UHGV virus genome: UHGV-1280367
Source of the DNA: a virus
Length of the DNA stretch: 29,457 bases
Direction: 5' to 3' (one strand)
Below, piece after piece: positions 1,715 through 18,169 of the stretch (within the stretch, counting starts at the first letter, position 1; each line of letters begins with the position of its first letter). The position numbers and the translations under genes were made by a program. The notes below the pieces were generated by a model. That model did not search any database. It was given only the letters and a program-made list of their open reading frames with translations, and was not told the DNA's origin.

Positions 1715-2192
1715 GGGCTTCACCCGGTTGCAGGAAAATTTCAACTACAGCGTCACCGGACTGGCTAACTTCGTTCGGGCTGGGCGTCTTACCCATGGAC
1801 AGGCTAATGCACTGGGTCGCCGTGCTGGTGAACCACCATTGCCACTCGAGCGCCAGCGCGCGATCGCAAATCTGGTGTACAGCAAACGCATGGGGAACGG
1901 TGCTCCCGGCGATGGCTGGAATTACCGTGGGCGCGGACTTATCCAGATTACCGGTTTGAATAACTATCGTGATTGCGGAAACGGTCTGAAGGTTGACCTG
2001 CTGGAGAGCCCTGAACTGCTGGCGCAGGACGAATATGCGGCTCGTAGCGCGGCGTGGTTCTTCGCCAGCAAAGGATGTATGAAGTATACCGGCGATATTG
2101 CACGTGTAACTCTGATTATCAATGGTGGCCGGAACGGCATCGACGACCGGCGCGCGCGATACATCAATGCCAGTAAGGTGCTGGCGGTATGA
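1563..2192 (+). CDS. Endolysin, glycoside hydrolase family 19 (chitinase-like) type
   Basis: 209 aa; the block [13 protein letters not shown]...GRGLIQITG...AAWFF is recognisable as GH19-type phage endolysin (recognition by eye). Start overlaps the second holin-tail copy; stop overlaps the Rz start (atga). Confidence 0.8.
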
Positions 2193-2686
2193 TCCTGACA
2201 TTCGTAAAAGCATATTGGAAACAGCTGCTTATCGTGTTGATGCTTGCTGCTCTGTTCATCGTCGGAGTGGTTGCCTGGAATATACACGGCAGCCGCCAGT
2301 ATGATGCCGGGTATGCGCAGGCACAGGAAGATCAGAAACAGGCTGATGATAAGGCCAGGTCACAACGTGATCAGGAGAAAACACAAATTGAACGTGAAGC
2401 ACAGTCCCGTATCGATGTGGCGCGTGTTGATGCTGAGCATGCTAATGCCGCTGCTGACAGCCTGCGCGCCGAGCTTGACAAAACCAAGCGACTCGCCGAA
2501 CACTATACCGGATCTTTCCCCACTGGCACGCCAGCCAGCAAGGTCATCGGTGTGCTCGCCGACATGCTTGAAGAAAGCAATCGAGTTTACAACGCAACAG
2601 CAGCTGAGGCTGAAAAGTATCGGATTGCAGGAGAATCCTGCGAACAGCAATACGATTCACTGAAGAAGCAAAAATCGTGGCACTGA
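2189..2686 (+). CDS. Rz: i-spanin (Rz-like)
   Basis: 165 aa with an N-terminal transmembrane helix followed by a charged coiled-coil-like region. Directly follows the endolysin with an ATGA overlap. Confidence 0.75.
2415..2663 (+). CDS. Rz1: o-spanin (Rz1-like lipoprotein) embedded in the +1 frame of Rz
   Basis: Internal ATG at 2415 gives [17 protein letters not shown]..., a signal peptide with lipobox LTAC followed by a Pro-rich mature part. Wholly embedded in Rz as in lambda. Alternative starts at 2430, 2439 and 2445. Confidence 0.7.
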   Translation: MWRVLMLSMLMPLLTACAPSLTKPSDSPNTIPDLSPLARQPARSSVCSPTCLKKAIEFTTQQQLRLKSIGLQENPANSNTIH

Positions 2687-2836
2687 TTTCCGGTGACGGT
2701 ATATAAAACGGTACAGTGAAAATCAGGTTGCAGAAAATTGTTATCAGTCAATTGGTTATGTATGTCGTAAATAATTGAGTGGGAATGATTAACAGCTAAC
2801 TCATAGCAACTCATTCCTATTCAGATACTAATTTAA

Positions 2837-2866
2837 CCCTCTGTTTTTACAGAGGGTTTTTTGTTT
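2837..2866 (+). terminator. Rho-independent terminator after the lysis cassette
   Basis: Hairpin ccctctgt / acagaggg followed by ttttttgttttt. Confidence 0.7.
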
Positions 2867-2924
2867 TTATGTATTCATTTCTATTCACTCTACACCATAT
2901 TTTTCGGCGGTACAGGTGACGGTA

Positions 2925-2939
2925 TTACCTTAAAGGTAT
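2925..2939. promoter_or_regulatory. Operator-like palindrome TTACC-ttaaa-GGTAT upstream of int
   Basis: A copy of the 15-bp TTACC-N5-GGTAA motif that recurs across the window, 43 bp upstream of the int start. Confidence 0.4.
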
Positions 2940-2981
2940 ACTCTCATACCGTCATGAAAATGGTTTCTATACGGGTGAATT

Positions 2982-4232
2982 GTGCTTACCGATACAAAAT
3001 TAAAGAACCTCAAGCCACAGGACAAACTGTACAAAGTTTCCGATCGTGACGGGCTGTATGTAGCTGTGCTTACGTCAGGTACGGTCTCGTTTCGCTATGA
3101 CTACCGTATCAACGGTCGCCGCGAAACACTGGTAATCGGGCAGTATGGGCGTGACGGTATCAGCCTGGCAGAAGCGCGAGAAGAACTGATTGCTGCAAAG
3201 AAGCTGCTTAAAGCAGGCCAGTCGCCGGCTGCGGCTAAACGTGACGGTATCAAAAAGATTCGTGGTGCCGAGACGTTTGCGGTACATACCGACAGTTATA
3301 TGAAACACGTCATCCTGGCTGAAAGTACCCGCGCAATGAAGCAGGCAGTGATCGACCGTGACATACTTCCTGTTCTTGGCAACAAAATGATGACTGAAAT
3401 TACCACATCGATGGTTCGTGATTTGTGTGACCGGATTGTCGAACGCGGTGGTCGGGCAACAGCTGTACAGGCCAGGGAGATCATCAGCAGCGTATACCGT
3501 CACGCCAATGACCGTGGTCATGGTTTGTTTAATCCTGCGGCTGACATTAAACCTTCGTCTATCGCCATATTTAAACCACGAGAGCGAACACTGACACCAG
3601 AAGAAATTGGCCTGTTCTTCCGCACGCTGGATGCCATTGGTGCTATGGGCACTATGAAAATGGCTTTAAAGCTGGTGCTTATCACTATGGTTCGTAAAGG
3701 CGAATTCACCAACGCAACGTGGGATGAAATAGATTTTAAAAAATGGACATGGACAATTCCTTCAGACCGCATGAAGGGAAGCCGGGCGCACGTTATTTAC
3801 CTGCCTAAACAGGCTCAGGATATATTGATCGGGTTGCAGATGTGCGCTGGTGGAAGTGAATATCTGGTTCCTGGTCGTTACAATTTCCGGAAGCCATTAT
3901 CTAATGCCGCGCTGAACTCTCTGATCGACAGAACGGTGAAAATAATAAATGAAGATGGTGAGCATATTCAGGGCTTCACCGTACACGATATGCGCCGTAC
4001 AGCCAGTACGTTGTTGCATGAGGCTGGTTATCCTTCAGACTGGATTGAAAAGGCTCTGGCACATGAGCAGAAAGGTGTGCGCGCCGTATATAACAAAGCG
4101 GAATACGCCAGACAGCGCGCCTACATGTTGCAGCAGTGGGCCGATATGATCGATTCCTGGATTGACGGGGAGCATACGGATCTGATTCCGTTCTCCCCGT
4201 CGAAGTTTGAGAAGTGGATGGCGGGGGAATAA
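2982..4232 (+). CDS. int: Tyrosine integrase (P4-like, with N-terminal arm-binding domain)
   Basis: 416 aa, GTG start. The N-terminus MLTDTKLKNLKP...DGLYVAV and a C-terminal catalytic region with conserved R, H-x-x-R and Y residues fit the phage integrase family. Confidence 0.85.
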   Translation: MLTDTKLKNLKPQDKLYKVSDRDGLYVAVLTSGTVSFRYDYRINGRRETLVIGQYGRDGISLAEAREELIAAKKLLKAGQSPAAAKRDGIKKIRGAETFAVHTDSYMKHVILAESTRAMKQAVIDRDILPVLGNKMMTEITTSMVRDLCDRIVERGGRATAVQAREIISSVYRHANDRGHGLFNPAADIKPSSIAIFKPRERTLTPEEIGLFFRTLDAIGAMGTMKMALKLVLITMVRKGEFTNATWDEIDFKKWTWTIPSDRMKGSRAHVIYLPKQAQDILIGLQMCAGGSEYLVPGRYNFRKPLSNAALNSLIDRTVKIINEDGEHIQGFTVHDMRRTASTLLHEAGYPSDWIEKALAHEQKGVRAVYNKAEYARQRAYMLQQWADMIDSWIDGEHTDLIPFSPSKFEKWMAGE

Positions 4233-5478: not shown

Positions 5479-5727
5479 TCATGCCGCGTTGCTCACGGGA
5501 CGATATACACGTTGCTGAACAGGAGGTTTTTTACCCTGGAACTCTGCCGGGCTTGCTGCCTGACGTTCATCAAGCCAACGCTCAACTTCATCACGGTTCC
5601 ATGCGCAGCGTTTATCGGTGATATACCAGCGTTTAGGAAATTCCCCTGCGCGCTCCATACGGTCGATAGTGCTCCATGACAGTGGCACCACCGCCATGAG
5701 TTCCTTCTTACCTAATGCACCTTTCAT
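5479..5727 (-). CDS. AlpA-family DNA-binding protein (putative excisionase or regulator)
   Basis: 82 aa; the segment LSWSTIDRMERAGEFPKRWYITDKRCAWNRDEVERWL matches the AlpA/Xis-like helix-turn-helix pattern. Confidence 0.65.
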   Translation of the reverse strand: MKGALGKKELMAVVPLSWSTIDRMERAGEFPKRWYITDKRCAWNRDEVERWLDERQAASPAEFQGKKPPVQQRVYRPVSNAA

Positions 5728-18092: not shown

Positions 18093-18169
18093 TGGCGTGG
18101 CATGCAGGATTCGAACCTGCGACCAACCGCTTAGAAGGCGGTTGCTCTGTCCAGCTGAGCTAATGCCAC
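18093..18169 (-). tRNA. tRNA-Arg, anticodon UCU
   Basis: Minus-strand sequence GTGGCATTAGCTCAGCTGGACAGAGCAACCGCCTTCTAAGCGGTTGGTCGCAGGTTCGAATCCTGCATGCCACGCCA folds by eye into a cloverleaf: 7-bp acceptor stem, D arm GCTC/GAGC, anticodon loop CTTCTAA, T arm GCAGG-TTCGAAT-CCTGC, encoded CCA. Close to E. coli argU as I recall it. Confidence 0.85.

Follow-up and report, generated by a model that had tools for sequence, protein, structure and literature searches.

The region between the Rz-like spanin gene and the integrase gene of this virus (positions 2687-2981) is the phage attachment site (attP) that phages of the phiV10/epsilon15 type use to insert at the end of the host gene guaA, a role already published for close relatives. 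The whole stretch of DNA analysed, referred to here as the window, comprises 29,457 nucleotides. It can be held with high confidence that this gap, probably together with ~310 bp further into int, constitutes a Uetakevirus attP for a P4-type integrase with two DNA-binding specificities. An original prediction, made from the sequence of the window alone, had proposed a probable attP with arm-type repeats at this place. That prediction is essentially correct, and the attP of phiV10/epsilon15-type phages is already in the literature.

The phage and its recombination module

The window is a Uetakevirus, a podophage similar to phiV10 and epsilon15. Its att-int region shows 98% identity with that of Escherichia phage phiV10 and 81-85% with the corresponding regions of Tyrion (Enterobacter), epsilon15 (Salmonella) and other Uetakevirus members, and the genes follow the order of phiV10: holin, endolysin, Rz/Rz1, terminator, int, DUF1382, methyltransferase, PerC, AlpA-family protein and RecT. 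The last of the late genes encodes the Rz-like spanin (2189..2686, plus strand; Pfam DUF2514, E 6e-26), whose phiV10 homologue carries the same annotation, and its stop codon at 2686 is the left edge of the gap. The right edge is set by the GTG start, at 2982, of int (2982..4232, plus strand), a gene of 416 codons with 98% nucleotide identity to the phiV10 int and with the Pfam domains Arm-DNA-bind_3, Phage_int_M and Phage_integrase in its product. Measured from the Rz stop to the int GTG, the gap, which exists as predicted, comes to 295 bp rather than the 296 bp first given.

On the minus strand, a small DNA-binding protein of the AlpA family is encoded at 5479..5727 (Pfam Phage_AlpA, 1e-5; phiV10 homologue annotated as AlpA family), which is a candidate for the excisionase (directionality factor). 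Elsewhere in the window there is a phage-borne tRNA-Arg (anticodon TCT; 18093-18169, minus strand), annotated at the equivalent spot in the prophage of E. coli 2015C-4944.

The common core and the host target

The gap contains a common core of 17 bp, ATTGAGTGGGAATGATT (2774..2790), which is an exact match to the 3' end of E. coli guaA. This core comprises the last four codons and the stop codon of guaA (I-E-W-E-stop) plus TT and, consequently, integration does not truncate GuaA. The gap was aligned with attL and attR of E. coli 2015C-4944 and with MG1655, whose site is empty. The four sequences share exactly ATTGAGTGGGAATGATT and nothing beyond, and they diverge on either side of the core, in agreement with the Campbell model. 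Strain 2015C-4944 carries a related prophage between guaA and yfgI, oriented with int beside guaA and Rz beside yfgI. The same limits are observed in ~560 of 5426 complete E. coli genomes, in which matches on the int side begin at position 2774 and those on the Rz side stop at 2790. The crossover must fall inside 2774-2790.

The core ends ~190 bp upstream of the start of int (2790 and 2982). An identical 17-bp core, also ~190 bp upstream of int, has been reported for the 97%-identical phage vB_EcoP_ZX5, for which attB, attL and attR were verified by PCR and sequencing, with attL and attR being Sanger-sequenced (PMC9782041). A passage of that paper states that this core sequence had been shown to be the attP of phiV10 and epsilon15 (PMC9782041). 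The phage of the window itself is predicted to integrate at the 3' end of guaA, as was shown by PCR and sequencing for its relative ZX5.

According to the original prediction, a host locus sharing a core with the gap should exist, often at the 3' end of a tRNA gene. Such a locus has been found, but it is the end of a protein-coding gene, guaA. A tRNA target was rejected, as the core is the coding end of guaA and the sole tRNA of the window, the phage tRNA-Arg at 18093-18169, is far from the gap. The 17 bp identical to host guaA had been overlooked in that prediction, together with a terminator at 2835-2868 and two exact motif copies in int, which are described below.

Predicted arm-type sites in the gap

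A repeated motif, distinct from the core sequence, is present on both sides of the core, at 2693/2705 in the P arm and at 2904-2955 in the P' arm. Searched with at most one mismatch, GTGACGGTAT gives 9 matches in the window versus 1.30 expected, a number that 0 of 100 shuffles reached, and six of the nine lie within 2693-3503.

In the P arm, site P1 (2693..2702, plus strand) is an exact GTGACGGTAT, invariant in nine Uetakeviruses, annotated as integrase-binding in its epsilon15 homologue and kept at the attR of a lysogen. Site P2, AAAACGGTAC (2705..2714, plus strand), follows 12 bp after P1, holds ACGGTAC at 2708-2714 and is inside the invariant block GTGACGGTATATAAAACGGTA. The P' arm contains four sites that are near-invariant in the nine phages: P'1, TCGGCGGTAC (2904-2913, direct); P'2, an exact GTGACGGTAT (2916-2925, direct); P'3, TTAAAGGTAT (2930-2939), which is degenerate and reads a perfect ACGGTAT in a K. 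pneumoniae relative; and P'4, ATACCGTCAT (2946-2955, inverted). Placed in register, each arm shows a pair of direct sites 12 bp apart, to which the P' arm adds a degenerate site and, after it, an inverted one.

The four sequence features listed in the original prediction are all present at the places it gave. GGTGACGGTAT does occur twice in direct orientation (2692-2702 and 2915-2925), and its claimed inverted copy is present with 9 of 11 bases only, as ATACCGTCA at 2946-2955. The second repeat, CGGTACAG, is found twice as claimed, at 2709-2716 and 2908-2915. The inverted repeat given as 2782-2817 also exists, in an imperfect form with arms at 2776-2788 and 2811-2823 that are 85% complementary.

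Nine Uetakeviruses, from Escherichia, Salmonella, Enterobacter and Klebsiella, were aligned for footprinting; invariant or near-invariant blocks stand out amid variable flanks, namely GTGACGGTATATAAAACGGTA at 2693-2713 and CGGTACAGGTGACGGTATTACC...GGTATAC...ATACCGTCA at 2908-2954. To the left of the P arm there is a mosaic breakpoint, at ~2675-2690 and ~18 bp from P1, since phiV10-type phages align with the window only from ~2675 rightward, and the Rz gene, including its 3' end, belongs to the Tyrion/PAT1 type (165 aa versus 160 aa in phiV10). The position of this breakpoint, just left of P1, fits P1 as the left end of the functional module.

The arm-type nature that had been proposed for the repeats agrees with the GenBank record of epsilon15, in which the same 10-mer is annotated as integrase-binding. 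This record holds four 'integrase' binding sites, all of them GTGACGGTAT, homologous to window positions 2693, 2916, 3151 and 3241; the epsilon15 assignment is itself a prediction. Moreover, the N-terminus of Int carries an Arm-DNA-bind_3 domain (PF13356, residues 2-87, E 4e-20), followed by the central and catalytic domains, so that arm sites are expected. It is predicted that this N-terminal domain binds the repeats of the gap. The literature searched for this phage and its close relatives contained no binding, footprint or cleavage results for Int, and a query with the motif matched nothing but primer sequences of unrelated work.

Conservation among guaA-targeting integrases

A scan of one genome per species yielded 47 loci with relatives of the integrase. 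The 33 examined, with identities of 90-47%, come from Enterobacterales, Aeromonadales, Neisseriales, Rhodocyclales, Burkholderiales and Caulobacterales, and therefore from Alpha-, Beta- and Gammaproteobacteria. A match to guaA is found upstream in 28 of these 33 loci, ending 195-571 nt before the int start, and in each of the 28 the guaA end reads ATCGAGTGGGA or a close variant. For three of the five remaining loci, the upstream sequence is too short to judge.

In 27 loci, the spacer between guaA and int contains 13.9 GACGGTA per kb, and the initial 330 nt of int contain 4.6 per kb; in the controls, the densities are 0.44 per kb for guaA and 0.29 per kb for the remainder of the loci. Relative to the guaA stop, the copies have nearly fixed offsets, with direct copies at +119 and +131, an inverted copy at +160 or +171 and a direct copy at +196, and longer spacers hold further copies at +266 and +289. 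The P' arm arrangement is thus repeated in 27 attL loci from three proteobacterial classes, in which the flanking preference extends the consensus to TGACGGTA(T/A). These comparisons strongly support a role for the motif as the arm site throughout the guaA-targeting integrase family.

A more distant system with the same target, the 3' end of guaA, is GIsul2, a non-phage island, unlike the phage of the window. Its integrase is 54% identical to the Int of the window over 396 residues, and an AlpA-family gene adjoins its int. The region upstream of the GIsul2 int (locus L061, A. baumannii pAB3) lacks GACGGTA and shows instead repeated units similar to CATGG(T/C)AT, for which reason the arm-site specificity seems to have diverged. 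This suggests that a switch of arm-site specificity may have taken place within the guaA-targeting family.

Copies of the motif inside int

Two exact copies of the arm-type motif are located inside int, both on the plus strand and both annotated in epsilon15. The first (3151..3160) coincides with the codons R-D-G-I, is part of a 12-nt invariant run and carries the integrase-binding annotation in epsilon15; the second is at 3241..3250. A third element, CGGTACATACCGAC (3280..3293), combines a direct and an inverted half-motif. A sixth copy, at 3494-3503 on the minus strand, is not conserved among phages and is probably due to chance.

Comparison of the first 717 nt of int in eight phages revealed 172 codons with an invariant degenerate amino acid, 36 of which are nucleotide-invariant. 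The invariant codons are concentrated in the motif (9 of 12, versus 27 of 160 elsewhere; Fisher p = 4e-5), and the three longest invariant runs are CGGTACATACCGAC at 3280-3293, which is the longest, GTGACGGTATCA at 3151-3162 and GACGGTAT at 3243-3250. This nucleotide invariance of the motif codons indicates that the copies in the coding sequence are under constraint at the DNA level. At 3151, TGACGGTAT is kept while the residue preceding it varies among R, C, I, P, A and S, being Cys in epsilon15 and Ile, Pro, Ala or Ser in genomic relatives. At the position equivalent to 3286, distant relatives hold TACCGTCA, the exact reverse complement of the motif.

In four alphaproteobacterial, high-GC loci (L041, L044, L045 and L052), a perfect arm motif, CGTGACGGTAT, is formed by the conserved DRDG(M/I) codons close to the start of int, versus CGTGACGGGCT at the D-R-D-G codons of the enterobacterial phages (window 3045-3054). 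In-gene copies of the motif are consequently found at different codons in different lineages.

Co-variation between the arm motif and the copies in the coding sequence could not be followed in the sampled guaA family, because the motif hardly varies in it. GIsul2, with a different upstream repeat and no copies in its int, is consistent with co-variation as a single case. The copies inside int may serve the intasome, the autoregulation of int or something else. That they are real Int-binding sites and that, in addition, a single family-wide arm motif, TGACGGTAW, with a fixed P'-arm geometry extends from Alpha- to Gammaproteobacteria is put forward tentatively, with slightly less than an even chance of being right. 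If the copies are real, the functional attP, or an int autoregulatory region, would reach ~500 bp past the core, into the part of the gene that encodes the arm-binding domain. If the shared motif and P'-arm geometry hold, they could serve as a signature for delimiting guaA-inserted elements.

RNA structure in the gap

A different explanation for the inverted repeats of the gap (2776-2823 and 2917-2954) is that they form RNA hairpins, for instance RNase III sites on the late or int transcript, and are not DNA bound by a recombinase. The epsilon15 record indeed labels the homologous stretches as 'RNaseIII', and the RNA folds better than shuffled sequences (-18.8 kcal/mol, z -4.6; -18.7 kcal/mol, z -2.7). 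However, the pairs exhibit no compensatory changes: Tyrion and BUCT554 alter the right arm of the 2917/2954 pair with the left one unchanged, and in the 2776/2823 pair the left arm is fixed by its identity as core and guaA coding sequence. Hairpins would also leave unexplained the direct copies at 2693, 2708, 3151 and 3241, as well as the presence in distant relatives of a motif at fixed offsets in which the spacing of the inverted copy is altered (+160 versus +171). In addition, all matches to Rfam families in 2500-3300 are far below the gathering scores, with nothing near threshold. As a replacement for recombinase sites, hairpins are therefore improbable; the two roles are not mutually exclusive.

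Origin of the window

The original prediction regarded the sequence as a phage or an excised form. The window does hold only phage genes, with no host sequence at either end, and its intact attP excludes a simple prophage junction. A phage or excised form is, however, only one of the possibilities, since a tandem double lysogen also carries an attP. In such a case, the window would be the internal junction of two prophages in a bacterial chromosome, with the intact attP between Rz and int. This arrangement does exist in E. coli GPEC1186 (NZ_CM142789.1), in which guaA-attL-int is followed 41.7 kb downstream by Rz-attP-int with the same integrase protein accession. Furthermore, 4 to 9 E. coli records, depending on the stretch of the gap used as query, have a place that covers at least 80% of the query across the core. 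The arrangement is nevertheless rare compared to the ~560 genomes with split matches of the attL/attR type, and the phage-only content of the window, without host sequence at its ends, also argues against it. This origin is thus very unlikely, and it would alter only where the window comes from, not the identity of the element as an attP.

Two of the core-spanning E. coli records are 41-kb entries filed as plasmids (HL15 and SF10). Three GenBank 'phage genomes', MN187550 (phiv142-3), JQ011317 (TL-2011b) and OQ921333 (PAS61), have start points that coincide with, or adjoin, the core or the gap (window 2774, 2790 and 2687), and appear to be prophage sequences excised at the attachment site and not genomes defined by virion ends.

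Position of the crossover

Around the left part of the core, a core-type dyad can be proposed (2767..2793), formed by C, GTAAATAATT (2767-2776), the overlap GAGTGGG (2777-2783) and C', AATGATTAAC (2784-2793). It is the sole 10-bp dyad in the gap that matches at 8 or more of 10 positions with a 7-bp spacer, and ~0.007 such dyads would be expected by chance at positions compatible with the 17-bp identity. In epsilon15, as read from the nine-phage alignment, the dyad matches at 9 of 10 positions, and all nine phages have the same 7 bases immediately left of the host identity.

For the GIsul2 integrase, a crossover with experimental support, GAGTGGGA, has been proposed at the guaA end, and its secondary sites retain TGGG or GGGA (PMC9376610). 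This crossover corresponds to window 2777-2784, that is, to the proposed overlap. The overlap is likely to be GAGTGGG, and cleavage would take place at its borders as deduced from the dyad. The inverted repeat 2782-2817 of the original prediction is not a core-type dyad, and 2767-2793 is a better candidate. In its actual form (2776-2788/2811-2823) that repeat was rejected because its arms are 22 bp apart and the right one is outside the attB identity and varies without compensation.

Terminator and other elements of the gap

To the right of the core there is a rho-independent terminator (2835..2868, plus strand), detected in a terminator scan, with a 10-bp stem, a 4-nt loop and a T run (fold -15.9 kcal/mol, z -6.2), which is also annotated in phiV10 and epsilon15. 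This phage terminator, AACCCTCTGTTTTTACAGAGGGTTTTTT, is near-identical to the terminator of host guaA, AACCCTCTGTTACTACAGAGGGTTTTTT (guaA-yfgI spacer of MG1655, locus L003), the difference being in the loop only. The spacers between core and terminator are unrelated, with 44 bp in the phage versus 24 bp in the host. It appears that the phage carries a captured or mimicked copy of the guaA terminator, which would replace the host one behind guaA after integration. Once integrated, the phage copy is located behind guaA and the host copy behind Rz, a swap that would preserve the termination of guaBA and of the late operon and would shield int from guaBA read-through.

Although a naive host search could pick up the terminator (2835-2864), which is nearly identical to host sequence, a true crossover elsewhere, such as in this shared terminator, with repeats that are due to chance or composition, can be dismissed as having almost no probability: attL holds the phage-type loop (TTTTT) and the phage-type 44-bp spacer and attR the host-type loop (TTACT), which places the exchange left of 2791 and rules out the terminator, and shuffles never reached the motif count seen.

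The terminator is flanked by a direct repeat, TCAWWWCTATTCA, with copies 64 bp apart. The first, within TCATTCCTATTCA (2811..2823, plus strand), is also the right arm of the inverted repeat discussed above, and the second, within TCATTTCTATTCA (2875..2887, plus strand), runs into the invariant CTATTCACTCTA. The repeat is conserved in 8 of 9 Uetakeviruses, with CTATTCA of the first copy kept in 8 of 9 and BUCT711 showing one substitution (CTACTCA for CTATTCA). It could be a site for the AlpA-family protein (candidate excisionase) or an element of the int promoter. No consensus sigma-70 promoter for int was found on the plus strand of the gap.

Between the P arm and the core, TATCAGTCAATTG (2742..2754, plus strand) is the sole match in the gap to the IHF consensus WATCARNNNNTTR. 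The window holds 5 matches to this consensus versus 2.2 expected, which is not significant on its own. The block 2742-2754 is largely conserved in the nine phages, and epsilon15 annotates IHF sites at the homologous place; IHF may take part in the reaction.

Proposed mechanism of integration

According to the model proposed here, the core-binding and catalytic domains of Int would carry out recombination between the 17-bp core and its identical counterpart at the 3' end of host guaA, with the dyad GTAAATAATT/AATGATTAAC around the 7-bp overlap GAGTGGG as the likely substrate. The N-terminal arm-binding domain would bind sites of the TGACGGTA(T/C) type, of which the P arm contains two (2693-2714) and the P' arm four (2904-2955); additional copies are probable at 3151, 3241 and 3280-3293. 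Intasome assembly would be assisted by bending proteins, for which the gap offers one IHF-like site (2742-2754). The core would supply again the last four codons and the stop of guaA, leaving the gene intact, and the phage copy of the guaA terminator would be placed behind guaA, insulating int. The expected product is a prophage bounded by int and Rz. Within this model, the core and its junctions, the enriched and conserved motif and the domains of Int are observed, whereas the binding of Int to the motif, the points of cleavage, the part of IHF and the excisionase function of the AlpA-family protein are inferred.

The main value of this analysis is the correct annotation of the prophage ends (int and Rz), of the host target (the 3' end of guaA, which stays intact) and of the orientation of the recombination module. 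What it adds to the published attP is modest and consists of minor refinements: the family-wide geometry of the arm sites, the constraint at synonymous sites of the copies within int, a proposed C-O-C' dyad in agreement with the GIsul2 data and the terminator mimicry. The arm motif at fixed offsets, the copies in int and the terminator copy could aid the annotation of guaA-inserted phages and of resistance islands of the GIsul2 family. They also offer a clean, sequence-defined system for the arm-site architecture of P4-type integrases. These observations refine known biology and do not overturn it.

Comparison with known attachment sites

The closest systems are the attP sites of phiV10, epsilon15 and ZX5, which share with the window an identical 17-bp core at the same ~190 bp upstream of an int that is 97-98% identical, the same terminator, and GTGACGGTAT repeats at homologous positions, including two within int. 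The differences are at the strain level, with 94-96% identity across the gap, the mosaic breakpoint and an Rz of the Tyrion/PAT1 and not of the phiV10 type.

The attP of lambda (P1, P2, the core COC', P'1-3, and sites for IHF and Xis) is used by a dual-specificity integrase with arm sites flanking the core, a 7-bp overlap between inverted core-type sites, and sites for bending proteins. The attP of the window matches the general logic, with predicted arm sites on both sides, a proposed 7-bp overlap in an inverted core-type dyad and a putative bending-protein site. In contrast to lambda, an inserted terminator separates the P' sites of the window from the core by 120-170 bp, one of these sites is inverted, there are probable extra sites inside int, and Int belongs to the P4/Arm-DNA-bind_3 group.

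The lambda attP is downstream of int, whereas that of the window is upstream, as in P4. In this satellite phage, att is immediately upstream of int, the integrase shows the same domain architecture, and a small protein of the AlpA/Vis type is the likely excision factor. The arm motifs of P4 are not known to be related to those of the window. P4 targets a tRNA-Leu gene; the element described here, unlike P4, targets the end of a protein-coding gene.
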